Shown: positions 7,229-37,695 of the stretch, in pieces
Numbering within the stretch: position 1 is the stretch's first letter
Layout of the letters: each line of letters opens with the position of its first letter
Source: Rhizophagus irregularis
Taxonomy: Eukaryota
Direction of reading: 5' to 3'
Assembly: GCF_026210795.1 (NCBI RefSeq)
Contig: NC_089433.1
Location: 1,798,001-1,862,000, forward strand
Length of the DNA stretch: 64,000 nt
Translations under genes and position numbers: made by a program
Notes under the pieces: model-generated
Told to the model about the DNA's origin: nothing
The model's input: only the letters and a program-made list of their open reading frames with translations
Databases searched by the model: none

Positions 7229-8135
7229 CAGTACTGGCAAAAAGTAATTAGAATTGCAAAAAAATGCAATAAATGAGAAACCAGCGATTGAAATTACTTT
7301 AAATTTTACAGATTTATTGCCAAATGGATTAATATTAAATGTATAAAATGTCAGCTTTTTATCTTATTTCCTTATCTTACAATTGATTTTTTTTTTCGAA
7401 AAAAAATCCATTAAAAATTTAAGCAAGGTAAAAATTTAATAAAGATTTTTAATATTGTCCTTAATCATTAACAATCAACATATATAATTATAATAAAAAA
7501 TTATAAACATAAAAATATATCTTTAATTGATTTATTGAAAAAATTTGGTTGTTACTTAATTATTAGTTAGTTTTTCATTAATGTTGACTTAAAAATTATT
7601 AAAATAAAATAAAATTTAAATATATTATACTTATTTTTTCAAATATTTTGAATATTATTAAACTAACATTAAAAAGTCTTTATTATAATCCTTTATAATT
7701 ATTGTAATTAAAATTTAATTTTTGAATTTTAGTTCTTTTTACTAAAATTAAAGATTAGGTTAGGTTGCGATCAATATAGTAAAGAAACTTTGATCTCAAT
7801 TTTCTCAATAACCAACAAATAAAAAAGTTTCAAATTTTTTTTAATAAAATTAGCTTAGTGTAAACTTTAATTTATAATCATTCAACATTTTTATGAATTT
7901 TAATTTGAATACTATAATTAGAATTTCAGATTTTTTATAAGTTAAATATTTTACAATTTTTTTTTTTGAATTAAAAAATCAATTGAGAAACAAAGAAATA
8001 AGATAAAAGGCTGATAATTTATATACATAATAATGACATATTTGGCAAAAACTCTATAAAATTTGAAGTAATTTTAATCATTGGTTTCTCATTTATCACA
8101 TTTTTTGCAATTCTGATTACTTTTTGCCAGTACTG
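7229..8135. mobile_element. Tc1/mariner-type MITE with long TIRs
   Basis: TA|CAGTACTGGCAAAAAGTAAT...ATTACTTTTTGCCAGTACTG|TA; inverted similarity extends well over 100 bp; TA TSD. Confidence 0.9.
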
Positions 8136-13179: not shown

Positions 13180-16100
13180 ACACCAATTTATATCGGGTGC
13201 ATCACAGGGATTTCACCCCCCTAATAGTGCGATACTTAATAATGATAGTCCTAATATTCCGCCTTCTTCTTCCTTTTCTTCCCCTCTTATTAACTTTGGA
13301 CAAATCAATGTTAATGGATTATGTTCCCCTGTGCGACAATTACATTTGTTAAATTATTTTCTCCATTCTTCTTTTGGCGTTTTATCTTTAAATGATACTC
13401 GTCTTACTTCTTCGGTGCCAAATTTATTTATCAAAATGAACATTTCCAACATAATTTTAAGTCCTATTGGGCTCCTTCCCCTTCTAATTCACGACCTCAT
13501 GATGGTGTTGGTCTTTTACTTCGCCATCCTTTACATAAACATGTTCAGAAAATTGATCCTTGGAAAGGTCGTCTTTTAAAATTAGATCTTTTTTTCCATC
13601 AGACAAAAATTTCTATTATTTCTGTTTATATTCCTCCTTATCATTCGATTCATTATAAAGAACGTGATGCTATTTTTGCCCAACTTAATTTATGGCTTGA
13701 TAAAGCCCGCTCTAATAACTATCACGTAGTCATCCTTGGTGATTTTAATGCAGATGAAATTTCACATTCACATCTTCCTCAACATCATTTAAAAATTTTA
13801 CGATCACTTTCTTCTCGATACTTTACGGATCATCAATCCCATATTTCTTCAATTTCAGGTCCTAGTCCCACTTTTTATCATCAAAATGGTTCTTCAAGAC
13901 TTGATTATATTTGGTCATCTCCTGGATTTCCTGCTCCTGGTCTCTTCTCTCATGTTGAAACTTGTCCTAAGCTGAATGATAATCAATTTACTGATCACCG
14001 TGTACTTATAACGGCCTTTGATTTTAGCTCATGTTTCGCTATTTTATCCAAAGCTAGATTAAAGCAGAAAAGCGAACAGCGTACCATCTTTCTTTACAAA
14101 AATTTGAAAGATGATGTTTGGGAGACCTTTTCCAATGAAGTAAACTCGCGTCTTGAGTTGTATTTGACCACACACCATCCCTCTATATCTTCACTTTCAG
14201 CTATTTCATTGGACAAACTTTGGCACGCTCTTAAACGTTCTATTCTTGGTGGTGCCATTGATTCCTTACCATTTCAGCATGTATCCAATACTCACCATCA
14301 TAAATATCCTCCTGAGCTTACGATGCTTATTGCTATCAACAAATTCTTGGATAGATTATTGTTCAAATTGACCACGTCTCGGCTTAGTCGTCCAGCTCAA
14401 ATTTCACAGATGATTAATTCTTTGTCTACACAATTAACTCTTCTGAAATCTCTTTTAATAGATTATACTATACCTATTTATAGTACGACACCACTTCCTG
14501 CTTTTATCAAATTTTTGCGTTCGCAAAAAGCCTTGGTCTCTGCATATCTTTCTACGCAATTTCATCAACATCGTGTAGATTCCATTGAATATTATACCGC
14601 TCTTAGAGATGAACATTTCTCTACGTCTCCAGGCTCCTTTATTTCTTCAGCCCTATCAGTGGAACATCGTTCTATTGTTCTTGATAGAGTTTTGGTTGTA
14701 ATTGACTCCAAACCTACTTTACTTACTGATCCTTCAGATATTAAACAAGCTGCTATTAAACACTTCCAATCGGTAGTTACTCCTCCTTTGGTCCAATATT
14801 CTTCTACCGAATCATTTCCTCCACGTTGGCAGAGAGCATATACTCCTTTTTCTGACATTGATTCATCCTTATATACTTCGGTTATGTCTCCTATTCTGGC
14901 CAATGAATGGATGAACACTATCAACTCTATGCCTAATAATAAAGCCTCTGGTCCTTCCAAAATTTCCTATGAGATGCTCAAACATTTAACTGGCGAAGCT
15001 TTCAACTTATCCCTTATTTTAGCTAATGCCTGCCTCATCCATGGAGATATTCCTGCAGATTGGCGTGAAGCGCTTGTTTATCCCATTCCAAAGCCTCATG
15101 AATTTGACGCACAATTGAAGAATACGCGACCCATCACTTTATTGGAAACTGTACGAAAATGTGTGGTTAAGGTCGTTACAACTCGTCTTTCAAAAATCCT
15201 AGCTGACAACCAAGTGCTTCTAGGTGGTAATTTTGCTGGATTGCCAGGCGGTTCCACTGATATTCCTATTAAGATGCTTGATGCTATTATTCATCAACGA
15301 CGCTTTGACAAAACTGATGACCAAGGATTATGGATTGTTTCTCAGGACATTTCTAAGGCCTTTGACTCAATTGATTTAAACATGCTTAGACTTGCTTTAA
15401 TTCGTCTGCATATACCGTCTTTATTGATTAAATTTATCATCAACCTTTTTACAAGACGTAATAATAAAATTATTACCCATCATGGTGATACTTCTGGATA
15501 TAGAGTTAGAATCGGTATTGACCAGGGTGAAATCATTTCTCCATTATTATGGGTTATTTACTTGGATCCTTTGCTTACCACACTTAATCGAGAAGCTTGT
15601 GATCCTTTTATTTTGAAATCTTCTGCATTATTGGATTATTCTCCAATTGAATATGAACAACACAATCTTCCTGTTTCACATATTACATTTATGGATGATT
15701 CTACTTTAATTGCTTCATCTAAACGAGGAATTGAAGATCGCCTTTCCATTACTGCTGAATTTTATACTTTAAATAATACTCAAGCAAATTCAGCAAAATA
15801 TATACTTCTTTCTTCTGAACAATTTTCTCAAACTATTGTGTTTGATCTTTCTCCATCCCCTCTAATTACATCTCATACCCTTACTTTAAAGGCGTTAGCC
15901 TTATCTACATCTTTTCGTTTTTTAGGTGTTTGGTTTAACCTTTCGGCTTCTTCTCGTTTTGTTCACAACCAAACTGTTTCCATGGTCAAAGATATGGCTG
16001 CTTTACTTAGTCCGAAAAAGCTTTTGGCGCAACATGTGACTTACCTTTACAATATTGTTTTACTTCCGAGGCTTGAGTTTCGCCTACAATCCACATTATT

Positions 16101-18651
16101 TGCTGAATCCACTATTAATCGCATGGTTTCTCCAATGCTTTCCCTTATTCGTCAGAAGGCTGGTTTGGCCTCGGTCACTCCTCTTTCCGCGCTTTTTACT
16201 ATGCTGCCTTTCTCCATTCAGCAAGCGTTTGGTCGATTTTTATCATCTCATGTGGCTTCATGGCAGAAAATTTTTTCTCACCCTTCATATAAGCTTTTTG
16301 CCAATTATATGATTACCTATCTCCAAGGACTTTTGGATTGTGATGCCTGTCCCTCTACTATTGATTTGGAACCATGGTCCCATACCTTTTCCTTACGAAC
16401 ACATTCTTTGTTCAATTCTTTATTGTTCTCTTCTCGATTGAATATCACGTGGTCTTTATTGTTCCGACCTCCGAGGAAAGATTTACGACCGGCGATTCCA
16501 CTCCGGTCTATTTTACCAAATGATTTATTTACTTCCATGAAAAATGTTCGGAATAATTTCTGCACTCGTTTTCTTGCTCAACTGATTACACCATGTGGCT
16601 CTCGACTTCTTTCATGGAAAGATTTACACTTTCTTAAACGAGTATCGAACAAAGGATCTGTGCCTGCTTGGTTTAATTATTTGTTCAATCTTATTGTTAT
16701 TCCTAATTCACCTTCTTTTTTTATTTTACAACAATTTAGAATTCCTAGTTCTCATACTGTAGCTTCTATTTCCTTTATAGATATTAGTCGAAATTATTGG
16801 TTTAACCCTCAATGGGCTATTTCTTTTAATCGTAATACTAATTCTTTTCTCGTTGGCCGTGTGATTACTACCTATCCTGCTCCACGTAATGAAGCTCTCA
16901 TTTCACATTGGATTGCGTCTTCGGTTGATGACTTGCTTTCTGATTTTACTGCATGCCAAGGTTGTGCCTCTGCTCTCCCGCGATCCTCTACCTCTAAGAC
17001 GTTGCTTAAACGATGTCCTTCTGAAAAGTGCTTCTCATATGTGTCTTTATCAAGTTTGATCCGTTATCCGATGAAACCTCGAACTTACATACATGCGGAT
17101 ACTCGCTCGGTTTCACTTTCCGCCTCGTTAGGCTATGCCAAATCTCTTTTATTATTTCATCTTTTTGCTCCAGATCGGTTACCTTCTATGAATGAACAAA
17201 TGCCTAGGATTTCTGTTATCCAACTTCCTTCTTCGGTGTCTACACTTTATATTGATGGTTCCTTCCTCCCTCCTTCTAGTCATCCGGTATCCTCGATGGC
17301 TTATGCATGGACTGCTATAGATCCTGATGGATTTATTTTGGAATCCCACTATAATATTATTTCCTCCATTTTTCCTTCTGCTTTACGTTCAGAAGTTTTT
17401 GCTTTATTGCACGGATTGGACTCCCTTCCTCGGAATTCAAAGATTACTGTTGCCACTGATTGTGCCCAATTACTTTCTTTTTGGTCTTTATATGTGGATG
17501 CTCCCTTTCTTCCCAGAATGCTTAAAGAATCCAACCACCTTTTGTGGTCTTCCATACGCACTATTATGTTGCAAAAGAATCTGGATGTTACCTTGATCAA
17601 GGTCCCTGCTCATGCTGACGATCCTTTGAATAATCATGTGGATGCATTAGCCAAAGCCGCTCATACTGACTCACAGCTTTCCTCTTGTCCACCCTCGGCA
17701 TTGATGGCTCCTTGCATTTTACAATTTAATTCCTTACCTGTGGATATGAATATCCGGAAATTTATTAGAGATATTTTTGACGCCAAAAGTCTTTTAACTC
17801 TTGCTGTATTGCCAAGATTTAATTCCTATTCTTCAACTTCTGATATTGATTGGGCTTGCACCAAATTTTGTCTCAATAACAATAAGCAATTTGCCTCTCA
17901 CCGGAATGGTCGTTCCGAGTTTTGTGGATTCCGTATCAAATTACTATTAGATATGCTTCCAACGCTTACAACTCTTCAGAGACGAAAGCCTCACCTATAT
18001 AATCCGAGTTGGCTATGTCCGCAATGTAATTCTTTTCCTGAGACCTTAGACCACTTGTGGACTTGTCCTTATATCTTACCGGAGTTTAGCCCTTTAAATA
18101 CCTTCAAGACACTACTGTTAAATTTTCTGACTAATTGTCTTGATAAATTCCTTTCTGCATCATCTTTAATACCCTTACCGGACTCTTTTGCTGCTGATTT
18201 TATATCTCTTAATTGTTGGAATTGTGATCCTCCTTCAGTTTCTTGCCTACGACTCGCTAGAGGACTTATACCGACTTCTCTTGCAGAATTTCTTGGAACT
18301 TATTTCTCTCTACTTCTCATATGGTCTATCTTAGATACACCTTTGCATGACTTTCATTTTGACCTTTATGTTCAAATCTGGTTGTGCCGTTCTATTTTCT
18401 TTCATCATTGGGAATCAGCTCAAGGCATTACTAAAAAACTGAAATTATCAGCTCTTGGGTCTTCTTCTATTTCTTGCACTTCCTCTAACGTCCCTCCTGA
18501 TTCTTCGACACCTTCTCTGGCGACAGTTTCCTCGGATTCCTGGGTTTCTTGGGTTTCCTCTTCTATAATCCGTGGGGGATCTTGGATTTCACACTTGGAT
18601 TTTTGGCGCCGCTTAACAGTTCAGCCTCTACTTAGGACTTCTTTTTGGTAA
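13172..18651 (+). CDS. LINE ORF2: APE endonuclease, reverse transcriptase, RNase H, C-terminal CCHC; one frameshift near 13413
   Basis: EN motifs GQINVNGL, GVGLLL, GDFN, RLDYIW, TDH; RT motifs KASGP, RPITLL, DISKAFDSI, GIDQGEIISPLLW, FMDD, FLGV; RNase H LYIDGS, SEVFA, ATDC, AHADDPLNNHVDALAK; CPQC..ETLDHLWTC. Confidence 0.93.
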
Positions 18652-19332
18652 CGGATTGGATCTTCGGATATGCTGGATAGTTGACTCACACTGGCCTTCG
18701 GGTAAAGATGGGGTATGCGTTTCTGTAATAGTTTAGTTTTCTTTACTTAATTTTATTTTGTTTAGATTTCTTTACTTGTATGATTCGTGAAGCTAGTTCT
18801 TTTTATTTTTTATGTTTATTTTCTATATTTGATATTTGTAATATTGTTTGATTTGTTTATTGTACTTTTCGTTTAAAAATTAATAATAAAAGATAAAGTC
18901 ACAAGACTGTTTGCTCATAATCACCAAATAAGAGGATCATCGCAACTCTTTCCTGAATTTTTGAAAATACTAATAAAATTTATTTTTGAAATTTTCGTTC
19001 GAAAATTTCTAAGTGCTCATTTAAAATACTAACATTTCCCCAGTTGCTTTCCTCTTTACTGAGCTTTAAACTATGACTACACCTCCAGCTCCTTCTGTTA
19101 TTAACCCAGATATTCCACCACCACCACGTCCTGTTGTTTCTGCTCCCTCTGGAGACCGACCTTTATCTCCCACTAGTACCGCTGGTGCGCCTAATAAACG
19201 TACACGTACTGTCTCTGATGACGTGATGAATGTTGATATAACTTCGCCCTCAGCTCCTGCCCCTACCTTATTTCTACCGTTCCTTCTGGTCTTCCTGTCA
19301 ACAAAGTCCAAGTGATCACATCTTCTCAAAAT

Positions 19333-19695
19333 CACAGGTCGAAATTAGTTAAATAGGGTATCAATAGGTTATCAATAGGTTATCAATCGGCTATCAATAG
19401 GCTACCCTATTGGTAGCCTATTGAACTTGCGCCATAATCCGTCACCAATCAGGCAGGCTGATTGTTAGCCAATTAATAACCTATTGATAACCTATTAGTA
19501 TCCTATTGGTATTTTTATCAAATTGGTTATCAATAAGGTATTAATAGGTTATCAATAGGTTATCAATCAGCCTGCCCGATTGGTGACGGATTATGGCGCA
19601 AGTTCAATAGGCTACCAATAGGGTAGCCTATTGATAGCCGATTGATAACCTATTGATAACCTATTGATACCCTATTTAACTAATTTCAACCTGTG
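19333..19695. mobile_element. Fold-back MITE, CAC termini, 3-bp TSD (CACTA/CMC-like)
   Basis: AAT|CACAGGTCGAAATTAG...CTAATTTCAACCTGTG|AAT; ~130-bp near-perfect arms with TATCAATAGGT repeats; empty site visible in copy 1. Confidence 0.93.
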
Positions 19696-22600
19696 AATAT
19701 TACCACTCCGGTTGAAACTGTTGACGCTTCTATCTATGCTCTCTCTAACACCAGTGGTAAAGGCAAAGCTGTCGCCTTTGATATCCTAGAACGACGCCCA
19801 TCTCCTGATGGTAATGCTGCTGCTATCAAATCCACACCTTCTCGCTACCATGCTGCGGCCTATCTACGTGACGCGCCTGACACGTTCAAAGCTAAATTTA
19901 CCACCAATCGCTCCATGTGTGACGAAGTGGATTGCTCACTCTCCCGATATTCCTCTTATGGTGCTCGCGCACGCTGCGATGGCTCAGGAGATAACAAAAA
20001 GATCCTCGTCTTCTTTAATGATCAACAGGATTTCACCGATTGTGTCAGCTCCCCACGTGCTGATCTTCTCAATTTAGTCTTCACCCATTATTCCCCTGCA
20101 GATGCCAAACTCAGCGACGAAGAAAAGTCTTTGTTTATCACTGATATCCCACTTTTCCTAAATGAGACTCAAGTCTGCCAAGCATTTTTCCGATATGGCA
20201 CTGTAGTTAAGTGCAAACTTACTCCTAAGAAGCATTATTATAATGGACATATACAGTTTTCCTCCGCGGATGCAGTTACCCAATTTAATGATATTTGGGC
20301 GATCATTTGCCTTGGTAACTCTCTACGTGTCTGCCCGGCATCCTTTTCGAAATCCCAACGCGATAGCCACAGAGAACATGTCGCTATCCTTGCTGGCATT
20401 CCAAAGAACATTAAAGAAGCTGATTTGCTTGATATTGCTACTCAAGTCAATGCTAAGGCTCTTAACATTCCTCTATCTATTAATTCCTACAAACCTAAAC
20501 CCTATGTATATTTGAATTTCTCCTCATTCGAATCTCTTGAAGCTGCCAAAGAAATGACCGTGGCTTTCCGCGGTAAAGGATTAACATGGCACCCTCCCAA
20601 TGAAGCACAGATTTTATGCCACGTTTGTGAACGTCCTGGTTGTTCTCCTTCTGTGTGTAATCTTCGTACTACACGGAAAGTGGACGATCGCCTTAACAAA
20701 CTTTATTCTCGCTTTAATGCTGGCCCTAGACGTGGACGTCAGGATTCGTGCCAATCACGTGACTATTCCACCTCCCGTTCACGATCGCGATCCAATTCTA
20801 GATCTCACAATAATAATTCCTCTTCACCCCGTTCCAACAACAATAACAACAACAACAATAACACTAACACTTCCCATCCTAATACTTCTCGAAGTAGTAA
20901 CCGGTCCAACAATAATAACAATCTCCGGAACAATGGTAATTCCTCTGGTCCTACCCAATCTCCAGACCAACCTCATCCTATCAGTTCTACACCTACTTCG
21001 CCATCTGACAGCCCTGCTCATACACTTCCTCAACATGTTATTGATGAATTAAAGGCGCAGATCAAAGAGATTGCTACTACCCTTAAATCTCTTGATGAAA
21101 CTGTTTCCTGGATGCAGGATACTATTACAAATCATGATTATAGAATATCTGAACTCGAATCAATGATGAATTATGATAATAATAATCCGGGTGACTCAGA
21201 TTTGTACCCACCTCATAATTATCACGATAACCATTCTTATGATAATGGATGGGATGATATCCCAGCCAATGACACGAATTCTGGATTCAATCTTCCTCCT
21301 CATACTTCACCTTCTCTTATGGACACTTCTCCAGATGCTTCCTTTTCAACTCTGGATCCTAACTCTGTCCTATCGAGACGACATGTTCCCTTACCTAATT
21401 CTCGACCTACTATTATTGCCCCTGACGCTAATTCTTCCCGTCTACAATCAGAAATCTTTAATGTTACTAATACACAAAAGAATCTTTCTGCCCAACTTGG
21501 TTCGATTATGGAAAAATTGGACTCCTTCTCTCCTTCAAAACCCTCCTCTTCCAATGATTGAACACCAATTTATATCGGGTGTATCACAGGGATTTCACCC
21601 CCCTAATATTGCGATACCTAAATTTAATAATCCTAATAATCTCTCTTCTCCTTTTTCCCCCTTGTTAATTTTGGACAAATCAATGTCAATGGTTTATGTT
21701 CTCCTGTTCGACAACTGCATTTGTTAAATTATTTTCTCCATTTCTCCTTTGGCGTTTTATCTTTAAATGATACTCGCCTTACTTCTTCTGGTGCTAAATT
21801 CATTTATCATAATCAACATTCCCTATATAATTTTAAGTCCTATTGGGCTCCTTCTCCTTTTAATTCACGACCACATGATGGCGTTGGTCTTTTACTTCGC
21901 CATTCTTTACATAAACATGTTCAGAAGATCGATTCTTGGAATGGTCGTTTATTAAAACTAGATCTTTTTTTTCATCAAACAAAAATTTCTATTATTTCTG
22001 TCTATATTCCTCCTTATCATTCTATTCATTATAAAGAACGTAATGCTATTTTTGCTCAACTTAATTTATGGCTCGATAAAGCCTGTTCTAATAATTATCA
22101 TATAGTTATTCTTGGTGATTTTAATGCAGATGAAATTTCACATTCACATCTTCCTCAACATCATTTGAAAATTTTGCGATCACTTTCTTCTCAATATTTT
22201 ACGGATCATCAATCCCATATTTCTTTGATTTCCGGTTCTAGTCCTACCTTTTATCATCAAAATGGTGCTTCAAGGCTTGACTATATTTGGTCATCCCCTG
22301 GATTTCCTGCTCCCAGTCTTTTCTCTCAAGTTGAAACTTGCCCTAAGTTGAATGATAATCAATTTACCGATCACCGTGTACTTATAACGGCCTTTGATTT
22401 TAGCTCTTGTTTCGCTACTTTAGCTAAAGCTAGACTTAAACAGAAAAGCGAACAACGCACCATCTTTCTTTACAAAAATTTGAAAGAAGATACTTGGGAC
22501 AAATTTTCTAATGAAGTAAACTCACGTCTCGAGTTATATTTGACCACACACCACCCTTCGATATCTTCACTATCAGTTCTATCCTTAGACAAACTTTGGC

Positions 22601-25368
22601 ACGCTCTTAAACGTTCTATTCTTGGTGGTGCTATTGATTCTCTACCATTTCAACATGTATCCAATACCCATCACCATAAGTATCCTCCTGAACTTACGAT
22701 GCTTATTGCTATCAACAAATTCTTGGATAGATTATTGTTCAAATTGACCACTTCTCGGCCTAGTCGTCCTGCTCAAATTTCACAGATGATTAATTCTTTG
22801 TCTACACAATTAATTCTTCTCAAATCTCTTTTAAAAGATTATACTATACCTTTTTATAGTACAACACCACTTCCTGCCTTTGTCAAATTTTTGCGTTCAC
22901 AAAAGATTTGGTCTCAGCTTATCTTTCCACGCAATTTCATCAACATCGTGTAGATTCCATCGAATATTATACTGCTCTTAGAGATGAACATTTCTCTACA
23001 TCTCCGGACTCCTTTATTTCTTCAGCCCTATCAGTGGAATATCGTTCTATCGTTCTTAATAGAGTTTTGGTTGTCATTGACTCCAAACCCACATTACTTA
23101 CTGATCCTTCAGATATCAAACAAGCTGCCATTAAACACTTCCAATCGGTTGTTACTCCTCCTTTGATCCAATATTCTTCTATTGACGAATTTTCTTCACG
23201 TTGGCAAAGAGCATATACTCCTCTTTCTGATATTGATTCGTCATTATATGACTCGGTTTTGTCTCCTATTCTGGAAGATGAATGGAAGAGTACTCTCAAT
23301 TCTATGCCTAATAATAAAGCCTCTGGTCCTTTCAAGATCTCTTATGAGATGCTGAAACATTTAACTGGCGGAGCTTTTAATTTGTCTCTTATTTTAGCTA
23401 ATGCCTGCCTTAACCAAGGCGATATCCCTGCTGATTGGCGTGAAGCGCTTGTTTATCCCATCCCAAAGCCTCATGAATTTGATGCTCAATTAAAGAATAC
23501 GCGACCTATCACTTTATTGGAAACTGTACGGAAATGCGTGGTTAAAGTCGTTACAACTCGACTTTCAAAAATTCTAGCTGACAACCAAGTGCTTCAAGGT
23601 GATAATTTTGCTGGATTGCCAGGCGGTTTCACTGACATTTCTATTAAGATGCTTGATGCTATTATTCATCAACGACGTTTTGACAAAACTGATGACCAAG
23701 AATTATGGATTGTTTCTCAGACATCTCTAAGGCCTTTGACTCAATTGATTTAAACATGCTTAGACTGGCTTTAATTCGTCTGCATATACCGTCTTTATTG
23801 ATCAAATTTATTATTAACCTTTTTACAAGACGTAATAATAAAATTATTACACATCATGGTGATACTTCTGGATATAGAGTTAGAATTGGTATTGACCAAG
23901 GTGAAATCATTTCTCCATTATTATGGGTTATTTACTTGGATCCTTTGCTTACTACACTTAATCGAGAAGCTTGTGATCCCTTTATTTTGAAATCTTCTGC
24001 ATTATTGGATTATTTTCCCATTGAATATGAACAACATAATCTTCCTGTTTCGCATATTACATTTATGAATGATTCTACTTTAATTGCTTCATCTAAACGA
24101 GGAATTGAAGATCGCCTTTCCATTACTGCTGAATTTTATACTTTAAATAATACACAAGCAAATTCAGCAAAATATATCCTTCTTTCTTCTGAACAATTTT
24201 CTCAAACTATAGTGTTTGATCTTTCTCCCTCTCCTCTAATTTCATGTCCTACTCTTACTTTAAAAGCGTTAGCTTTATTCACCTCTTTCCGTTTTTTAGG
24301 TGTTTGGTTCTGTCTTTCGGCTTCTTCTCGTTTTGTTCATAACCAAACCACTTCCATGGTTAAAGACATGGTCGCTCTTCTCAGTCCCAAAAAACTTTTG
24401 GCATAACATATAGCTTATCTTTATAATGTTGTCCTACTTCCGAGGCTAGAATTTCGCCTACAAACCACATTATTTGCAGAATCTACCATTAATCGCATGG
24501 TTTCTCCAATGCTTTCCCTTATTCGACAGAAGGCTGGTCTTGTTTCAGTCACTCCTCTCTCTGCGCTTTTCACTTTGTTACCATTTTCAATCCAACAAGC
24601 ATTTGGTCGATTTCTTTCATTCCATGTGGCTTCATGGCAGAAAATTTTTTCTCACCCTTCATATAAACTTTTTGCCAATTATATGATTACTTATCTCCAA
24701 GGTTTTTTGGACTGTGATGCCTGTCCTTCTACTATTGACCTGGAACTATGGTCCCATACCTTTTCCTTGCGAACACATTCTTTGTTCAATTCTTTATTAT
24801 TCTCTTCTCGTTTAAATATCACGTGGTCTTTATTGTTCCGATCTCTGAGGAAAGATTTACGTCTGGTGATTCCACTCCGGTCTATTTTACCAAAAGATTT
24901 ATTTCCTTCCATGAAAAATGTTCGGAAAAATTTCTGCACTCGTTATCTCGCCCAATTGATTACACCGTATGGCTCTCGACTTCTCTCATGGAAAAATTTA
25001 CGTTTCCTTAAACGAGTATCAAAAAAGGATCTGTACCTGCTTGGTTTAATTATTTATTTAATCTTATTGTTATTCCTAATTCTATTTCTTTGTTTGTTTT
25101 ATCACAATTTAGAATTCCTATTTCTCATACTGTAGCTTCTATTTCTTTTATAGACATTAGTCGTAATTATTGTTTAACCCTCAATGGGCTATTTCTTTCA
25201 ATCGTAATACTAACTCTTTTCTTGTTGGCCGTGTAATCACTATTTATCCTGCTCCACGTAACAAAGCTCTTATCTCGCATTGGATTGCAACTTCGGTTGA
25301 TGATTTGTTTTCTGATTTCTCAGCATGCCAAGGATGTGCTTCTGCTATCCCGCGATCCTCTACCTCTA

Positions 25369-27938
25369 CATCAGGAAGTCACGGGAAAAATGTTTATTAC
25401 ATGTACATTTTTGTAGATCATGTATATTATAATATTCATTATTTTAAATTAACATGTAATATTTAACATTAATGAGCATCATCAATGAGATTTTTATCAT
25501 GATGTGCAGCATTAAATAATGATAATTCAATATTTATCAAATTTATAATTTTTTATATTAGTGCACTAGTCAAAATAGACCATGATCTACGATTAGACAT
25601 TGGTCAAATAGTGCACTAATTAAAACGTCACGCGTTACGCATATTAAAAGTTTAAAAAAGGATCATCATCTTTTTTTAAACTTTTCATTCTCTTTCATCC
25701 TTCCCCTATCATCCTTCCTTTCCCCCCTTCCCTTCCTTTATCTTCCTTTCCTTTCCCTTTGTCCCTCCCTCCCTTTCGTCCTTCCCTTCCCCCTTTTCTC
25801 ACGCCTCTTTTTCTTGGAAGTAATGTAAGTTTCATTTCGAAACTTACATATTTTTTTTTAATTTATTTTTTTTTTAATTTAAAAAACAACTTAACATTTC
25901 TTATTGTTATTTTTTTGTAGGACGCGCACTAGGAGGACGCCAGCTTGAATACTACGAAACCGGACTTTAGGTAGTGAGAAATGGGAAAGGGGAAGAGATT
26001 TTTGTTATTTTATTTTAAGAAACGAACTAACGTTTCTTTTTGTTATTCTTTTTTTGTAGGACGTGCACTAGGAAGACGCTGGCTTGAATACTACGAAACT
26101 GGACTTTAGGTAGTGATAAATGGGAAAGGGGGGAGATTTTTGTTGTTTTTAATTTAAGAAACGAACTAATGTTTCTTTCATTATTTTTTTTTTTATAGAA
26201 CAAGGACGCCGGCTTGAATACGAAACCAGACTTTAAGGTAAAAAACTGGAAAGGGGGGATTGGAGGAAGGGGACTTGAACTAAGATTCGTAAGAATCTTG
26301 GTTTTATTTATTTTTTTTTATTATTTTAGAATAGTTACTAATAACCGTTCTTTTCTTTTTAGATTTCGGATGGACTTCCGATTTTTGGAAAAGGAGAAAC
26401 CAAGATTCGTAAGTACGTACGAATCTTGGTTTTTTATTTTTATTTTTTATTATTACGAACGGTTACTAATAACCATTTTTTTTTGTTTAGGTTCGGATGG
26501 GCTTCCGAATTCCAAAGAATGGAAGACTAAAGATTCGTAACGGTAAGTACAAATTTTTTTTTATTTTTTATTTTATGGAACGGTTTACTAACCGTTCCTT
26601 TCTTTTTTTTTATAGGTTTGGTGAGCTTCTGACGAACGGAAACCAAGATTCGTAAGAATCTTGGTATTTTTTTTTTATTTTATAGAACGGTTTACTAACC
26701 GTTCCTTTCTTTCTTTTATAGGTTCGGTGGGCTTCTGACAAACGGGGAACCAAGATTCGTACGAATCTTGGTTTTTATTTATTTTTTTTATTATTATGGA
26801 ACGGTTTACTAACCATTCCTTTTTTTATTTTTATAAGTTCGGTGTCTCAGAAGAATGGAAAAACCTAAAGATTCGTAAGTACTAGTACGAATCTTTTGGG
26901 TTTTTTTTATTTTTTTTAATATTACGAACAGTTACTAACCGTTTTTTTCTTTTATTTTTTTTTTATAGGATTGGGTGGTCTTCCGAAGAACGGAAAATAA
27001 TAAACTGAGGTTCGTAAGTATTTTACTACAAACTTTAGGATTTTTTTAATATTACGAACGGTTTATTAACCGTTCTTTCTTTCTTTTTTTTAGAGGATCA
27101 GGTGGATTTCTAAAGATCGGAAAAAGGAGAACTAAGGTTCGTAAGTATTATATTACGAACCTTAGATTTATTTTTTTTTAATGCTATGAATGGTTCTAAC
27201 CATTCTTTTTGTTTTATTTTTTAGATTTCGGGTAGGCCTCCAATCTTCGGATAAAGTGGAACCAAGATTCATGAGTACGAATCTTGGTTTGTTTATTATT
27301 TTTTTTTTTAAATATTATGGAACGGTTACTATTTACTAACCGTTCTTTTTCTTTTTTTTAGGTCTCAGGTGAATTTTCGAAGAATGAAACAAGAAGATCA
27401 AGATTTGTAAGTATATACAAATCTTAACGGAACGGATTAGTAAGTTTCGAAGTTTTACTTCAAAACTTTTTTTAAAATTTTTTTTTAAATTAATTTTTTT
27501 ATTAATTCTTTTTTTATCTTTTTATTGTTAGGTTGTACTTCTTGAACAAGTTTCGAAGAATAACTGAACTTCAAACCTTTTTTTGTAGGTCACGGAGTAT
27601 TTAGTTAATTAATATAAAGATTGTAAGTTTCGTTGCGAAGCCTACTGTCTTTTTTTCATTTTCTTTAACAGTTGTTACTTTTAATAATAGAAAAATTTAG
27701 CTAATATTATTGTTATAGTGTATTTAATAAAATAAATTCAATAATATTATAAATTTAATATGATGTTTATTATCTTTAAATAATGTACATCGTTAATAGA
27801 CATTAAAATTAGGTGATGCACATCGAATATTATGACATCGGTAGTACATTGCAGGGTCCGATGTTCAGCGTTTCTTTATAATGTACATCAAATGACCGAT
27901 GTACATTTGATAAACATTTTTCCCGTGACTTCCTGATG
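25369..27938. mobile_element. Non-autonomous TIR element A (TA TSD) carrying a micro-exon/intron array
   Basis: 29-bp perfect TIR CATCAGGAAGTCACGGGAAAAATGTTTAT; TA duplicated relative to empty site TACCTCTAAGAC in other copies; no transposase ORF. Confidence 0.93.
25690..27735 (+). ncRNA. Putative multi-exon non-coding transcription unit (about 14 micro-exons)
   Basis: CT-rich leader, then repeated donor (GTAAG/GTAG) - branch (CTAAC/CTAAT) - poly-T - YAG units; AATAAA near 27726. Confidence 0.55.
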
Positions 27939-30900
27939 TAAGACTTTACTTAAACGGTGTCCTTCTGAAGGATGTTTTTCTTATGTTCCGTTATCAAGTT
28001 TGATCTGTTATTCTACGAAACCTCATACTTATATACATGCGGATACTCGCTCAGTTTCACTTTCTGCATTGTTAGGCTATGCCAAATCTCTTTTATTATT
28101 TCATCTATTTGCTTCGGTTCGGCTACCTCCTGCGCTTACCCAAGCGTCCAGGATTTCTGATATCCAACTTCCTTCTTCGGTATCTATACTTTATATTGAT
28201 GGTTCCTTCCTTCCTCCTTCTAGTCATCTGGTATTTTCGATGGCCTATGCATAGACTGCTATAGATCCTGATGGGTTTATTTTGGAATCCCATTATAATA
28301 TCATTTCTTCCATTTTTCCATCTCCTTTACGTTCAGAAGTATTTGCTTTATTGCATGGATTGGACTCCCTCCCTCGGAATTCAAAAATTACTGTCGCCAC
28401 TGATTGTGCCCAATTACTTTCTTTATGGTCTTTATATGTGAATGCTCCTTTTATTCCCAGAATGCTTAAAGAATCCAACCACCTTTTGTGGTCTTCTATA
28501 CGCACTATTATGTGGCAAAAGAATCTGGATGTTTCCTTGATTAAGGTTCATGCTCACGCTGACAACCCTTTGAATAATCATGTGGATGTATTAGCCAAAG
28601 CTGCTCATACCGACTCGCATCTTTCTTCTCATCCATCATTGAAATTGCTAGCTTCTTGCATTTTACAATTTAATTTCTTACCTGTGGATATGAATATCCG
28701 GAAATTTATTAGAGATATTTTTGATGCTAAATGTCTTTTAACTCTTGCTGTATTACCAAGATTTAATTCCTCTTCTTCGATTTCTGATATCGATTGGGCT
28801 TGCACCAAATTTTGTCTCAATAACAATAAGCAATTTGTCTCTCATCAGAATGGCCGTTCTGAGTTTTGTAGTTTCCGTATCAAACTAATATTAGATATGC
28901 TTCTGACGCTTACAACTCTTCAGAGACAAAAGCCTCATCTTTACAATCCGAGTTGGCTTTGTCCTCAATGTAACTTTTCTCCTGAGACTTTAAACCACTT
29001 GTGGACTTGTCCTTATATTTTACCAGAATTTAGTCCTTTAAAAACTTTTAAAACACTACTATTGGCTCTTCGGACTACTTATCTTGATAACTTTCTTTCC
29101 GCGTCATCTTTTATCCCTTTACCGGACACTTTTGCTGCTGAATTTATGGCTCTTAATTGTTGGGATTGTGACCCTCCTTCAATTTCCTACTTACTGCTCG
29201 CAAGAGGACTTATACCGATATCTCTTACAGAATTTCTTGGAATCTATTTCTCTTCACCTACCATATGGTCTATCTTAGATACACCTTTGCATGACTTTCA
29301 TTTTGACCTTTATGTTCAAATCTGGTTGTGCCGGTCTATTTTCTTTCATCATTGGGAATCAGCTCAAGGCATTACTAATAAAATGAAATCGTTAGCTCTT
29401 GGGCCTTCTTCTATTTCTCGCTCTTCCTCTAACATTCCTCCTGATTCTTTGACACCTTCCTTGGCGACAGTTTCCTCAGATTCCTGGGTTTCCTGGGTTT
29501 CCTCTTCTATAATCCGTGAGGGATCTTGGATTTCACATTTGGATTTTTGGCGCCGTTTAACAGTTCAGCCTCTACTTAGGATTTCTTCTTGGTAACAGAT
29601 TGGATTTTAGGATATGCTGGATAGTTGACTCACACTGGCCTTCGGGTAAAGATGGGGTATGCGTTTCTGTAATAGTTTAGTTTTTCTTTACTTAATTTTA
29701 TTTTGTTTAGATTTCTTTACTTGTATGAATCGTGAAGCTAGTTCTTTTTATTTTTTGTTTAATTTTCTATATTTTGTAATATTGTTCGATTTGATTATTG
29801 TACTTTTCGTTTAATAATTATAATAAAAGATAAAGTTAAAAGACTGTTTGCTCATAATCACCAAATAAGAGGATCATCGCAACTCTTTCCTGAATTTTTG
29901 AAAATACTAATAAAAATTTATTTTTGAAATTTTCGTTTGAAAATTTCTAAGTGCTCGTTCAAAATACTAATATTTCCACAGTTGCTTTCCTCTTTACTGA
30001 GCTTTATACTATGACTACACCTCCAGCTCCTTCTGTTATTAACCCGAATATTCCGCCGCCACCGCGTCCTGTTGTTTCTACTCCCTCTGGAGACCGACCT
30101 TTATCTCCCACTAGTACCGCTGGCGCATCTAACAAACGTTCACGCGTTGTCTCTGATGACGCTATGAATGTTGATATAACTTCACCTTCTGCTTCGGCTT
30201 CCAACCTTATTTTTACCGCTCCCTCAGGCCTTCCTGTCAACAAAGTCCAAGTGATTACCTCTTTTCGTAATACTACTACTTCTGTTGAAACTATTGACGC
30301 TTCTATCCATGCTCCCTCTAACATTAATGGTAAAGGCAAAGCTGTTGCCTTCGATATGCCAGAGCGCTGACCCTCTCCCGATGGTAATGCGGCTGCTATC
30401 AAATCCGCACCTTCTCACTACCATGCTGCGGCCTATCTACGCGACGCGCCTGACACGTTCAAAGCTAAATTTACCACCAATCGCTCCATATGTGACGAAG
30501 TGGATTGTTCACTCTCCCGATATCCTTCTTATGGCGCCCGTGCACATTGCGATAGATCAGGCGATAACAAAAAGATCCTTGTCTTCTTCAATGATCAGCA
30601 TGATTTTACCGATTGTGTCAGCTCCCCGCATGCAGATCTTCTCAATTTAGCCTTTGTTCATTATTCCCCTGCAGATGCCAAACTCAATGATGAAGCAAAG
30701 TCTTTGTTTGTTACTGACATCCCACTCTTCCTGAATGAGATGCAAGTCCGCCAGGCATTTTCCTGATATGGAACTGTGATTAAATGCAAACTCACCCCTA
30801 AGAAACATTACTACAATGGTCATATCCAGTTTTCTTCTGTGGATGCAATTGCCCAATTTGATGATATTTGGGCGATCATTTGCCTTGGTAATTCCTTACG

Positions 30901-33649
30901 TGTCTGCCCGGCATCTTTTTCAAAATGCCAACATGACAGCCGTAGAGAATATGTTGCTATTCTTGCCAGCATTCCAAAAAATATTAAAGAAGCCGACCTT
31001 TTTGAAATTGCTAATCAAGTTAATGCTAAAGCCCTTAACGTCCCACTATCTATTAACTCTTACAAGCCTAAACCCTACGCATACTTGAATTTTTCTTCAT
31101 TTGACACTCTAGAAGCTGTAAAAGAAATGACCGTAGCTTTCCATGGCAAAGGGTTGATATGGCACCCTCCCAATGAAGCACATACTTTATGCCATGTTTG
31201 TGGGCGTTCTGGTTGTTCACCTTCTGTTTGTAGTCCTTGTCCTACACGAAAAGTGGATGATCACCTTAACAAATTATATTCACGCTTCAATGCTGGTTCT
31301 TGACGTGGTCATCAGAATTCACGCCAACCGCGTGATAAATCCAATTCCCGTTCACGATCGCGATCTAATTCCAGATTTCGCAATCCATCTTCTTCATTCC
31401 GATCTAATAACAGTAATAACCGTACTAATAATACTCGTCCTGATACTTCTCGTAGTAACAACTGAACCAACAGCAATAATAATAATAACATTCCCAATAA
31501 CAATGGTTATTCTTCCGGTTCTATTCAACCTCCACCTGAGCCTCGTCCTAATAATTCTACTACACATATCTCTTCTTCTGACAATTCTGCTTATACACTT
31601 CTTCAACATATCATTGATGAGTTAAAGGCGCAGATTAAAGAGATTGCTACTACCCTCAAATCTCTTGATGAAACGGTCTCCTGGATGCAGGATACTATCA
31701 CGAATCATGATTATAGAATTTCTGAGCTCGAATCAATGATGAATTATGATAGCGGTAATCCTGGTGACTCAGATTTGTACCCACCTCATGATGATCAAGA
31801 AACTCATTCCTATAATAATGGATGGGATGATGCCCCAACCCAGGACACGAATTCAGGATTCAACCTTCTTCCTCATACTGCACCCTCTCTTATTGATACT
31901 TCTCCTGATGCTTCTTTTTCTACTTTGGATCCTAACTCTGTCTTATCACGACGACATGTCCCCTTACTTAACTCTCGACCTACTATTATTGCCCCTGATG
32001 CTAATGCTTTCCGTCTGCAATTGGAAATTTCTAATGTTACTAATACCCAAAAGAATCTTTCTGCCCAACTTGGTTCGATTATGAATAAGTTGGACTCCTT
32101 CTCCCCCTCAAAACCTTCCCCTTCTAATGATTGAACACCAACTTGATTTGGGTGATTTACAGGGACTTCACCCCCCTGACAGTGTGTTACCTGATAGTCT
32201 TAATAGCAAGATCCCTTCCTTTTCTCCTTCCCCTCTTATTAATTTTGGACAAATCAATGTTAATGGTTTATGTTCCCCTGTTAGACAATTGCACTTGTTA
32301 AATTATTTCTTGCATTCCTCATTTGGTGTTTTATCTCTAAATGATACTCGTCTTACTTCATCTAGTGCTAAATTTATTTATCAAAATGATCATTCCCAGT
32401 ATAATTTTAAGTCCTATTGGGCTCCTTTCCCTTCTAATTCATGACATCATGATGGTGTTGGTCTTTTACTTCGCCATCCTTTACATAAACATGTTCAGAA
32501 AATTGATCCCTGGAAAGGTCGTCTTTTAAAATTAGATCTTTTTTTCCATCAAACTAAAATTTCTATTATTTCAGTTTATATTCCTCCTTATCATTCTATT
32601 CATTATAAAGAACGTGATGCTATTTTTGCTCAACTTAATTTATGGCTTGATAAAGCCCGCTCTAATAACTATCACGTAGTCATCCTTGGTGATTTTAATG
32701 CAGATGAATTTTCACATTCACATCTTCCTCAACATCATTTAAAAATTTTACGATTACTTTCTTCTCGATATTTTACGGATCATTAATCCCATATTTCCTC
32801 AACTTCAGGTCCTAGTCCTACCTTTTATCATCAGAATGGTTCTTCACGACTTGATTATATTTGGTCATCCCCTGGATTTCCTGCTCCTGGTCTTTTCTCT
32901 CAAGTTGAAACTTGTCCTAAGCTGAACGATAATCAATTTACTGATCACTGTGTACTTATAACGGCCTTTGATTTTAGTTCTTGTTTCGCTACTTTAGCTA
33001 AAGCTAGATTAAAGCAGAAAAGCGAACAACGCACCATTTTTCTCTACAAGAATTTAAAAGAAGATATTTGAAAAACATTTTCCAATGAAGTAAACTCACG
33101 TCTTGAGTTGTATTTGACCACACACCATCCCTCTATATCTTTACTTTCAGCTCTTCCTTTGGACAAACTTTGGCACGCTCTTAAACGTTCTATTCTTGGT
33201 GGTGCCATTGACTCTCTACCATTTCAACATGTATCCAATACTCACCATCATAAATATTCTCCTGAGCTTACTAAGCTTATTGCTATCAACAAATTTTTGG
33301 ATAGATTATTGTTTAAATTGACCACATCTAGGCCTACACTGGTCAAAATCAATTCTATCGGGTACATATCGGGTACCTATATATCGGTGGCTAATCGGAT
33401 AAGTATCGGGTATTTTTACATATCGGGTACCCGATAGCTAAGCTATTAGTCACTGATATTGTATATCGGGCATTGATCTATCTTACACATATCAGGTACC
33501 CGATATGTAAATTTTAATACGTAAGATTTTTATTTTGTACAACGTACTGTATTATATATAATCCGTTTCAACTAAAATTTTTTATTTAAATTCATTTTTT
33601 AGATAATTTTTATAAATAATTTTCTAAGAAATTTTAAAAGTCCATTTGA

Positions 33650-36600
33650 ATAATATTTAATAGGGATTTTATTTAAGAAACTTTTAGATAGATTTTTTTG
33701 AGAAATTTTTTAAGAGTCCGTTTGGAAAAATTATTTTTTTAACTAAGAGGATCATTTAGAGCATTTTTGATAGAGAATTTTCTAAAGATTTGTTTGGAGA
33801 GATTATTTTTGAGAATTTTTTAACTAAAGGGACCGTTTGGAACATTTTTTGATAGAGAATTTTCTAAGAATTCGTTTGGGAAATGGTTTTTTGAGAATTT
33901 TTTAACTAAAAGGATCATTTGGGCATTTTTTGATTGAGAATTTTCTAAGAGTTCGTTTAGGGAAATTATTTTTTGAATTTTTTAATTAAGGGGATCGTTT
34001 AGGGCATTTTTTGATTGAGAATTTTCTAAGAGTTCGTTTAAAGAGATTATTTTTGAGAATTTTTTAACCAAAGGGACCGTTGGAACATTTTTTGATAGAG
34101 AATTTTTTTGATAGAGAATTTTCTAAGAGTTTGTTTGGAAAAATTATTTTTTGAGAATTTTTTAACTGAAGGTATCATTTGATAGAGAAATTTCTAGGAG
34201 TTCGTTTAGGAAAATTATTTTTTGTATTTTTTAATTAAGGGGATCGCTTAGGACATTTTTGATAGAGAATTTTCTAATGATTTGTTTGGAGAGATTGTTT
34301 TTGAGAATTTTTTAATTAAAGGGAACGTTTGGAACATTTTTGATAGAGAATTTTCTAAGAATTTGTTTGGGAAATGGTTTTTCAAAAATTTTTTAACTAA
34401 AAGGATCATTTAGGGCATTTTTTGATTGAGAATTTTCTAAGAGTTCGTTCAGGGAAATTATTTTTTGAATTTTTTAATTAAGGGGATTGTTTAGGGCATT
34501 TTTTGATTGAGAATTTTCTAAGAGTTCGTTTAGGGAAATTATTTTTTGAATTTTTTAATTAAGGGGATCGTTTAGGGCATTTTTTGATTGAGAATTTTCT
34601 AAGAGTTCGTTTAGGGAAATTATTTTTTGAATTTTTTAATTAAGGGGATCGTTTAGGGCATTTTTTAATAGAGAATTTTCTAAGAGTTCGTTTAGGGAAA
34701 TTATTTTTTGTATTTTTTAATTAAGGGGATCGTTTAGGGCATTTTTTGATAGAGAATTTTCTAATGATTCGTTTGGAGAGATTATTTTTGAGAATTTTTT
34801 AACCAAAGGAACCGTTGGAACATTTTTTGATAGAGAATTTTCTAAGAATTTGTTTGGGAAATGGTTTTTTGAGAATTTTTTAACTAAAAGGATCATTTAG
34901 GGCATTTTTGATTGAGAATTTTCTAAGAGTTCGTTTAGGGAAATTATTTTTTGTATTTTTTAATTAAGGGGATCGCTTAGGGCATTTTTGATAGAGAATT
35001 TTCTAATGATTCGTTTGGAGAGATTGTTTTTGAGAATTTTTTAACTAAAGGGAACGTTTGGAACATTTTTGATAGAGAATTTTCTAAGAATTTGTTTGGG
35101 AAATGGTTTTTCGAGAATTTTTTAACCTAAAGGATCATTTAGGGCATTTTTGATTGAGAATTTTCTAAGAGTTCGTTTAGGGAAATTATTTTTTGTATTT
35201 TTTAATTAAGGGGATCGCTTAGGGCATTTTTGATAGAGAATTTTCTAATGATTCGTTTGGAGAGATTGTTTTTGAGAATTTTTTAACTAAAGGGAACGTT
35301 TGGAACATTTTTGATAGAGAATTTTCTAAGAATTTGTTTGGGAAATGGTTTTTCGAGAATTTTTTAACCTAAAGGATCATTTAGGGCATTTTTGATTGAG
35401 AATTTTCTAAGAGTTCGTTTAGGGAAATTATTTTTTGTATTTTTTAATTAAGGGGATCGCTTAGGGCATTTTTGATAGAGAATTTTCTAATGATTCGTTT
35501 GGAGAGATTGTTTTTGAGAATTTTTTAACTAAAGGGAACATTTGGAACATTTTTGATAGAGAATTTTCTAAGAATTTGTTTGGGAAATGGTTTTTTGAGA
35601 ATTTTTTAACTAAAAGGATCATTTAGGGCATTTTTGATAGAGAATTTTCTAAGAGTTCGTTTGGGGAAATTATTTTTTGTATTTTTTAATTAAGGGGATC
35701 GCTTAGGGCATTTTTGATAGAGAATTTTCTAATGATTCGTTTGGAGAGATTGTTTTTGAGAATTTTTTAACTAAAGGGAACGTTTGGAACATTTTTGATA
35801 GAGAGTTTTCTAAGAATTTGTTTGGGAAATGGTTTTTTGAGAATTTTTTAACTAAAAGGATCATTTAGGGCATTTTTGATTGAGAATTTTCTAAGAGTTC
35901 GTTTAGGGAAATTATTTTTTGTATTTTTTAATTAAGGGGATCGCTTAGGGCATTTTTGATAGAGAATTTTCTAATGATTCGTTTGGAGAGATTGTTTTTG
36001 AGAATTTTTTAACTAAAGGGAACGTTTGGAACATTTTTGATAGAGAATTTTCTAAGAATTTGTTTGGGAAATGGTTTTTCGAGAATTTTTTAACTAAAAG
36101 GATCATTTAGGGCATTTTTGATAGAGAATTTTCTAAGAGTTCGTTTGGGGAAATTATTTTTTGAATTTTTTAATTAAGGGGATCGTTTAGGGCATTTTTT
36201 GATAGAGAATTTTCTAAGGATTCGTTTGAAGAGATTATTTTTGAGAATTTTTTTAACTAAAGGGAACGTTTGGAACATTTTTGATAGAGAATTTTCTAAG
36301 AGTTCGTTTGGGAAATGGTTTTTCGAGAATTTTTTAATTAAAAGAATCATTTAGGGCATTTTTTGATAGAGAATTTTCTAAGAGTGTGTTTAGGGAAATT
36401 ATTTTTTGAATTTTTTAATTAAGGGGATCGTTTAGGGCATTTTTTGATAAAGAATTTTCTAATGATTCGTTTGGAGAGATTATTTTTGAGAATTTTTTAA
36501 GCCAAAGGGATCGTTTGGAACGTTTTTGATAGAGAATTTTCTAAGAGTTCATTTGGAAATGGTTTTTCAAGAATTTTTTAACTAAAAGGATCGTTTAGGG

Positions 36601-37230
36601 CATTTTTTGATAGAGAATTTTCTAAGAGTTCGTTTGGAAAAATTATTTTTTGAGAATTTTTTAACTAAAGGGATCATTTGGGACATTTTTGATAGAGAAA
36701 ATTCTAGGAGTTTATTTGGGGAAAGTATTTTTTGAGAATTTTTTAACTGAAGGTATCGTTTGATAGAGAAATTTCCAAGAGTTCGTATAGGGAAATTATT
36801 TTTTGAATTTTTTAATTAAGGGGATCGTTTAGGGTATTTTTTGATAGAGAATTTTCTAAGAGTTTGGGGAAATTATTTTTTGAGAATTTTTTAACTGAAG
36901 TATCGTTTGATAGAGAAATTTCTAAGAGTTCGTTTAGGGAAATTATTTTTTAAATTTTTTAATTAAGGAGATCGTTTAGGGCAATTTTTGATAGAGAATT
37001 TTCTAAGAGTTTGTTTGGAAAAATTATTTTTTAAATTTTTTAATTAAGAGGATCGCTTAGGGCATTTTTGATAGAGAATTTTCTAAAGATTCGTTTGGAG
37101 AGATTATTTTTGAGAATTTTTTAACTATTTGGAACATTTTTTGATAGAGAATTTTCTAAGAGTTTGTTTGAAAAATTATTTTTTGAGAATTTTTTAACTG
37201 AAGGTATCATTTGATAGAGAAATTTCTAAG
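33650..37230. repeat. Satellite array, ~81-bp monomer (two ~40-bp halves) with 242-bp higher-order repeat
   Basis: GAGTTCG anchor at 34441, 34522, ~34603 (81 bp) and at 34927, 35169, 35411, 35653, 35895, 36137 (242 bp). Confidence 0.92.
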
Positions 37231-37695
37231 ATAATATAGTTATTGAGTATGATATATACTTCCGATGGTGTATAGTAATAAAATTCTAAAAACCGTTCAT
37301 TGTATATTATAATCCAAGTACTTACAATTCATATCTTTTTCGTTTATATAATTATCATTCGGTAAATCATCTTTGATGTTTTGTCCCTATAATAATATTG
37401 AGAAAAGTTAATTTATCATTAATTTCGTCATAATAAGAGAAGTATAGTGTAAAAAAACTATACTGTATAGATAAAAGGGGTACTGTATAAAATAAAAACT
37501 ATACTGTATAAAATAAAAAACTATACTGTATAGATAAAAAATTATACTGTATGGATAAATATAGATTTTTATCAACTATACTATACAACATCGGAGGATT
37601 CGGAGGTATATTTCATACTCAATATCGTTTAACCAGAAATGGATGCTATCGGGTATTCAGTATATCGGTATATTTGATTGGCCGATCTACACATC

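Follow-up and report, generated by a model that had tools for sequence, protein, structure and literature searches.

A PlavakaB-type transposon of Rhizophagus irregularis with an array of hairpin-centred spliceosomal introns as its cargo

A short insertion in the genome of the root-symbiotic fungus Rhizophagus irregularis carries many splice signals and no evident product, which raises the question of what kind of cargo this is. The insertion lies in a window of 64,000 nucleotides (assembly GCF_026210795.1, contig NC_089433.1, positions 1,798,001 to 1,862,000), which is AT-rich and holds several LINE copies with endonuclease, reverse transcriptase and RNase H. An initial annotation, made from the letters alone, had described a transposon cargo of about 14 short exons and introns, with donors and branch points locked in hairpins, and had proposed that it acts as a small-RNA precursor, a spliceosome decoy or a silencing modulator. 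The comparisons used here were drawn from the window, from two short loci that share an end with the element (L003 and L004) and from eight sequencing runs.

The element splits a LINE copy, the domains of which were assigned using Pfam on its own frames and on an intact paralog (13396-18651), together with repeat comparison. The TA duplication lies at 25367-25368 and 27939-27940, and the sequence CCTC-TA-AGAC stands in three uninterrupted LINE paralogs of the window at the site that is TA-element-TA in this copy. The terminal arms, which measure 42 nt with the TA counted, are 95% complementary. PlavakaB elements are defined by CATCA..TGATG ends and a 2- or 3-bp duplication (Kojima 2025, PMC12730594), and the present element has 5'-CATCA..TGATG-3' termini, inverted repeats and a 2-bp duplication. 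These ends, the duplicated TA and the empty LINE sites bear out the description as transposon cargo. Assignment to Tc1/mariner, first suggested by the TA duplication, was rejected, given that other insertions have AA, GA and GC flanks and that the ends fit PlavakaB. The same end is flanked by AA in L003 and by GA in L004, which indicates that TA is not a fixed target.

Plavaka elements are prevalent and expressed in R. irregularis (PMC11075540). The 2,570 bp of this element encode no transposase, and no autonomous Plavaka partner was found, the two short same-ended loci showing only a protein without a Pfam match. A scan of sequence collections with the terminal repeat returned two viral loci without a match to the window and two short metagenome loci. 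Searches with the hairpin patterns gave no matches in viral and prokaryote contigs, a result that is uninformative for fungal genomes.

The interior of the element follows the grammar of U2-type introns on one strand, with GT donor, branch point, pyrimidine tract and YAG in order (Table 1). The pattern of donor, branch point and acceptor has 12 matches on the plus strand and none on the minus strand (mean 1.5 and maximum 5 in 300 dinucleotide shuffles), and a strict intron pattern has eight and none, respectively (shuffle mean 0.18). The introns of the array, 13-14 in number, are of GT-AG type and 70-125 nt long; between the longer end exons lie 11 internal exons, each measuring 36-52 nt, in agreement with the exon-intron series initially annotated. 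Each beta unit runs from its exon through a donor hairpin (AAGATTC-GTA..-GAATCTT), a T tract, a branch-point hairpin (GAACGGTT-TACT-AACCGTTC) and a second T tract to TAG. In the unit at 27.0 kb GTAAGT was rejected as the donor, splicing occurring four bases earlier at AG|GTTCGT (27010). Private damage is present in this copy at a donor (GT>AT at 27271) and at an acceptor (26836); at both sites many paralog reads show the consensus letter.

Table 1. Positions of the element, its cargo and related features in the window; the two same-ended loci have coordinates of their own
Feature	Position	Strand	Details
Non-autonomous DNA transposon, PlavakaB-type ends CATCA..TGATG	25369..27938	.	2,570 bp, TA duplicated
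Left terminal inverted repeat	25369..25408	+	40 bp
Right terminal inverted repeat	27899..27938	-	40 bp
Host LINE copy, frame-broken, split by the element	21640..29595	+	endonuclease, reverse transcriptase region, RNase H
Putative promoter-like region	25620..25690	+	CACGCG at 25629, 18-bp AT-rich hairpin 25643-25688
Exon 1, pyrimidine-rich, 5' end approximate	25690..25824	+	RNA cover; read joint to 25921
Intron 1, spliced	25825..25920	+	donor within 11-bp predicted stem, pairing 0.98
Three alpha units	25921..26288	+	exons of 50, 50 and 39 nt; open donors AG|GTA
Alpha-unit branch points	within 25921..26288	+	in AAGAAACG/CGTTTCTT-type stems
Nine to ten beta units	26289..27439	+	exons of 36-52 nt
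Beta intron, spliced from AG|GTTCGT	27010..27093	+	branch point in perfect 8-bp predicted stem
Intron, likely spliced	27440..27531	+	X5 contig geometry
Last exon, 3' end approximate	27532..27731	+	RNA-like cover to 27711; AATAAA at 27726
Elements with CATCAGG end	L004 1-1354, L003 1-420	.	gene for 439-aa protein P0001, acidic tail
CACTG-ended element, CACTGGTCAAAA ends, CTA duplication	33337-40392	.	81-bp satellite 33700-37200 plus array
Ten-unit intron array	37700-38960	.	9/10 branch points in AAGAACGTT/AACGTTCTT stems
Degenerate inverted-repeat element beside inverted LINE piece	47670-51144	-	holds array 48100-50500
Short introns, three or more, weaker branch-point stems	52150-52560	+
Array	61200-62400	-	beta-type units 62080-62400, alpha-like units 61200-61560
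SF3B4 piece, frame-broken, then intron	61744-61860	-	E 3.5e-4 to human chain; between array modules

In L003 and L004 an intron-containing protein gene replaces the array. The last 162 nt of the present element are 94% identical to L004, a metagenome locus sharing the right end, the protein of which is 98% identical to an unnamed R. irregularis protein. P0001 has no Pfam family, and its atlas neighbors are unnamed fungal clusters at 0.93-0.94. The presence of a real-looking protein gene in the position of the array suggests that the array itself might be a decayed or mis-spliced protein gene with repeated exons. We regard this as highly improbable, and it is already largely refuted. P0001 has no tblastn match in the window, and all three phases occur among the exon lengths of the array. 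Counted from ATG, frames of 33-35 aa are obtained for fully spliced models, and for 4,000 splice combinations drawn at random the median is 56 aa and the maximum 102. Two word-index searches returned no protein match, and a search of 1.84 billion representatives returned two, both metagenome gene calls that read through introns and carry the same beta-type units elsewhere. The spliced product therefore has no conserved frame (35 aa at most when fully spliced), in keeping with the non-coding nature initially proposed.

Known classes of structured RNA were also considered. The Rfam search gave nothing near threshold, its six matches having E values of 0.06-0.76 and lying far under the gathering score (MIR5998, 19.9 bits versus 180), and no C/D or H/ACA snoRNA family is found among matches up to E 1. 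Precursors of miRNAs have stems of about 20 bp or more, and mirtrons pair the two ends of the intron. The stems of the array measure 7-17 bp, and its anatomy makes a role as small-RNA precursor unlikely. A related proposal is that the array is a snoRNA-host-like gene, in which the exons are disposable and the excised introns, encoding small structured RNAs, are the product. The lack of a frame and an intron sequence that is more conserved than the exons would be expected of such a gene, which is nevertheless very unlikely here, given that no Rfam family is approached and that the conserved parts are the splice signals themselves, the remaining intron being a variable T tract.

Transcription of the array was observed in four raw-read runs with the same species label (X21-X24, from at most three samples and two studies). 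PolyA RNA has a depth of 1-67 over 25720-27693 and of less than 1 at 25438-25625 and 27788-28050, with the depth climbing from about the promoter-like region. The joint 25824>25921 (GT..AG) is found in 6, 7, 11 and 2 reads of X21-X24, that is, 26 reads in all four runs, and the joint 27007>27092 (GT..AG, donor at 27010) in 18 reads from three of the four. Coverage by polyA RNA and the removal of these two introns confirm the transcription and splicing that the initial annotation had predicted. The second joint also occurs in all three RNA-like contig sets and is absent from the DNA-like set. The RNA-like sets (X3, X5 and X9) were taken as RNA by guess, the sole support being their zero depth on the LINE flanks, which have deep cover in the DNA-like run. 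Of two successive X5 contigs, the first matches as far as 27432 and the second from 27532 onward, with 37 extra letters ahead of that point. This geometry fits 27403-27439 joined to 27532, with an overlap of 30 letters, which would remove 27440-27531; by the geometry of the X5 contigs the acceptor at 27361 is also likely used.

Splicing appears to be incomplete. Mismatch-free contigs are unspliced over 26034-26240, 26215-26390 and 26984-27123 and run through the donors at 27407 and 27623. The remaining introns, including all those starting at the eight TTC|GTA donors, are not among the joints listed, which are 15 of 63 for raw reads and 15 of 41 for contigs, an unlisted joint not being thereby an absent one. 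Among these 15, 13 (raw reads) and 14 (contigs) are not GT..AG and are read as a unit order that differs between paralogs, or as empty LINE sites. Most RNA reads derive from paralogs (in X21, 65% are 90-95% alike and about 80% run on into unlike sequence), the libraries look unstranded, and the listed joints are a subset. For these reasons the data describe the array at the level of the family, which is transcribed and partly spliced as a mixture of paralogs. RNA-like contigs diverge into other sequence from exon 1 (at 25827) and from the last exon (at 27565), a sign that one first exon may be joined to different arrays in different paralogs, whose ends would also vary. In X15 hairpin bins have a summed contig depth that exceeds that of locus-specific contigs by a factor of 100 to 500, which hints at many copies but gives no count.

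The three hairpin strings quoted in the initial annotation are present at the positions it gave for them. When the splice motif was kept fixed and the flanks were shuffled, 10 of 16 donors folded better than shuffles (51-mers centered on the donor, p<=0.013; controls 0/8), as did 7 of 13 branch points (41-mers, p<0.05; controls 0/7). The controls are few, 15 sites in all from introns of L003, L004 and two gene fragments of the window; some fold-test coordinates are off by 1-3 bases, and the branch-point count omits a 14th scoring site, where the donor hairpin had been picked. The region 26363-26970 folds with z = -9.7 (20 shuffles). Of 34 introns picked from five arrays for a clear branch motif, 24 have their best local hairpin centered at most five bases upstream of the branch adenosine. 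The claim that exons often hold hairpins did not survive the same comparison, with only 1 of 12 exons above shuffles at p = 0.05.

The predicted hairpins stand on the splice signals as initially described, but they cage these signals only in part. The loop of the commonest forms holds the letters GUAA, with which the donor starts, or UACU or UAUU of the branch point, with the branch adenosine in the stem; in the short donor form GUAA is itself the four-base loop. Nor is the description of the signals as locked supported. The donor at 25825, which has the highest predicted pairing of all, is spliced in every raw-read run, and the intron ending at 27093 is spliced despite the perfect predicted stem over its branch point. 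Neither the opening energy nor the pairing with the U1 end separates spliced from unspliced donors. The donor AG|GTTCGTAAGT is used at 27010 (opening energy 8.5 kcal/mol) and unlisted at 27137 (16.9 kcal/mol), which is one pair only, and the uncaged donors at 26110 and 26238 also appear unspliced. This behavior resembles that of Saccharomyces cerevisiae, where stems near splice sites are uncorrelated with the fraction spliced (PMC12350175).

Stems remain complementary as the units diverge, as had been noted at the outset. The 12 donor hairpins compared have 92% of their cells paired; double-sided change is seen at 5 of the 13 pairs, in 9 cells against 3.3 in shuffles (0/500). The 25 branch-point segments from five arrays, aligned in a single fixed register, have 65% paired and reach a covariation score of 0.30, against 0.18 (0/500). 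These figures are not probabilities, since the units are kin and the structure was read from the same units. None of the outcomes named by the initial annotation as speaking against it (lack of transcription or splicing, lack of compensatory changes, a conserved frame) was found, and the array may act as a decoy or silencing modulator.

Double-sided changes alone cannot decide for selection, because template switching yields them without it. This bears on a neutral account, in which inverted-repeat elements took up an old intron-containing module from the 5' part of a gene, one unit was duplicated in tandem, splicing is incidental, and template switching during replication made and repaired the palindromes. 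Template switching is reported to create and maintain stems with multi-base compensatory changes (bioRxiv 10.1101/2021.04.15.439925), and the array holds a perfect palindrome over the donor at 26759 and stems that differ by paired insertions in both arms. The broken SF3B4 piece between array modules at 61.8 kb shows that host fragments are captured, and the strength of the cage is unlinked to splicing. What the neutral account explains poorly is the distribution of conservation. Comparison of the beta units gives 2 departures from consensus among 74 splice-critical letters, 4 among 70 letters of the 5' arm of the donor hairpin and 85 among 312 letters of the exon cores. Compared in pairs, the donor arms are the most alike (identity 0.87), followed by the branch hairpins (0.76) and then the exon cores (0.59). 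Splice letters and stems are therefore far better conserved than exons, although the Fisher p of 3e-7 for splice letters versus exon cores overstates the case, the units being kin and delimited on conserved motifs. We reason that template-switch repair keeps the arms complementary but would not slow their drift. Moreover, the hairpins lie on splice signals and not in exons, and the geometry at the branch point recurs over arrays with different exon sequences. A neutral origin of the cargo is nevertheless only somewhat less likely than the explanation favored below.

The recurrence of the array is seen within the window, where four further arrays carry the branch-point hairpin, two of them inside other inverted-repeat elements, so that arrays sit in three different elements of this kind. 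In the array at 48100-50500 the motif CACG(T/C)G occurs three times, the leader is pyrimidine-rich and the donor at 49007 has a hairpin resembling that of intron 1; only 3 of its 12 branch points fold at p<0.05. The array at 61200-62400 is cut at 62414 by a CACTGG end. Other features of the window are a 907-bp TA-flanked element with CAGTACTGG inverted ends (7229-8135), a near-perfect inverted repeat of 176 bp that is composed of short units and lies between LINE copies (19332-19696), and a 255-aa open frame (55223-55990, plus strand) that Pfam matches weakly to an ADP-ribosyltransferase family (E 6.8e-5; 24 bits, under the cut-off of 26.6).

The arrays are rich in CpG. The observed/expected ratio is 1.72 in the present array and 1.49 and 1.47 in two others, against 0.66-0.82 in the LINE copies; it is also high in the 81-bp satellite (1.43), and high CpG may also be a product of recent amplification or of palindromes, where one CpG stands opposite another. 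The pair 27191/27202 is C-G in RNA-like contigs and T-A in this copy, both changes being of the CpG-decay type.

Slow introns could also provoke silencing. The hairpins would then stall spliceosomes, and the transcripts would recruit RNA-dependent RNA polymerase and RNAi factors, with the result that small RNAs are made or the silencing machinery is soaked up. The mismatch-free unspliced contigs across several introns, the missing TTC|GTA donors among the joints listed and the single pair of AG|GTTCGTAAGT donors are what such stalling would give. In addition, unannotated regions account for 41% of the 3,067 small-RNA loci of R. irregularis (PMC8647823), and slow introns of Schizosaccharomyces pombe call in RNAi (PMC5322907, PMC13473130). 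Against a trigger of this kind, the array has no sequence in common with a transposase gene, so that any small RNAs from it would be directed at other arrays alone; the array is rich in CpG and found in polyA RNA; its most fully paired donor is spliced, and its uncaged donors likewise appear unspliced. Silencing as the function of the array is unlikely.

The best explanation at present, which we hold tentatively, is that the element is a selfish gene mimic, whose non-coding array of hairpin introns keeps it transcribed and unmethylated. The selected trait would be the repeated loading of spliceosomes and not the spliced product. The hairpin loops may offer the first letters of each signal (GUAA, UACU) to U1 and U2, a loop-first capture suggested by general knowledge of the spliceosome, and the stems may slow the following step, making each unit a slow landing pad. 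Transcription coupled to splicing would keep the element in open chromatin free of CpG methylation, where a Plavaka transposase made elsewhere could still reach its ends. This explanation is favored because non-autonomous cargo persists most simply if it aids the movement of its element, and because R. irregularis methylates silent transposons, expressed ones being less methylated at their small-RNA loci (PMC8647823). Fungal transposons are also known to carry anti-methylation cargo of another sort, TET/JBP (PMC12730594).

Counted in favor of the gene mimic are the strand-specific grammar, the RNA on the array but not on its flanks, the conservation of splice letters, the high CpG and the recurrence in several elements. 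Counted against it are the failure of opening energy to predict donor use, the high CpG of the satellite and the private damage to splice sites; by analogy, the inefficient introns of S. pombe, which promote silencing, would point to the opposite of protection. If this explanation holds, the function of a transposon cargo would be splicing itself. A broader form, which is speculative and on balance doubtful, is that several CACTA-like transposon families of mycorrhizal fungi share a protein-free anti-silencing device, in which arrays of hairpin-gated introns present a loop to U1 and U2, load one spliceosome after another and render the chromatin gene-like. Such a device may explain part of the unclassified quarter of the R. 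irregularis genome, of which about 24% is unclassified repeat (PMC8647823). A recurring cargo that is transcribed, spliced and non-coding would put a name to part of these repeats or of the unannotated small-RNA loci.

The vehicle is of a known kind. It resembles PlavakaB (PMC12730594) in its CATCA..TGATG ends, terminal inverted repeats and 2-bp duplication and differs in that it has neither transposase nor any other protein, its cargo being a non-coding intron array. A cargo of tandem hairpin-centered spliceosomal introns without a product appears undescribed in the literature searched, a search that covered neither subscription papers nor repeat libraries nor Rhizophagus supplements. The word "intron" has no occurrence in the main text of PMC11075540 and PMC8647823, the supplements and repeat libraries of which may hold the family unclassified.

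Closer parallels are found among fungal introns. Introners, or introner-like elements, are fungal introns similar to each other in sequence. The [D1,2] stwintrons likewise form families of short introns in fungi that resemble one another and whose splice signals bear inverted repeats (PMC12403724). Both spread singly into coding genes, and their 5' end pairs with their 3' end, whereas the units described here are tandem, belong to non-coding cargo and have separate local hairpins at donor and branch point. The structured introns of S. cerevisiae share with the array their stems near splice sites, but true splice sites in yeast are depleted of stems, which cover cryptic sites (PMC12350175), while here stems are centered on the consensus sites of most units.

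With respect to silencing, the nearest systems are those in which splicing is coupled to RNAi. Stalled spliceosomes reportedly recruit RNAi in Cryptococcus through SCANR. In S. pombe, inefficiently spliced introns of the centromeric dg/dh transcripts promote silencing (PMC5322907), and cryptic introns with TEaM steer RNAi (PMC13473130). Their transcripts are, like those of the array, non-coding, repeat-derived and partly spliced. Silencing in those systems is set off by a single weak intron or by a few, whereas the present array places 13 introns in tandem, their consensus signals lying under hairpins, in a mobile element. Arrays of this kind also lend themselves to asking if slow splicing protects a fungal transposon or singles it out for silencing, since hundreds of variant units, alike in their signals and graded in their stems, would allow splicing rate, small RNA and methylation to be compared directly.
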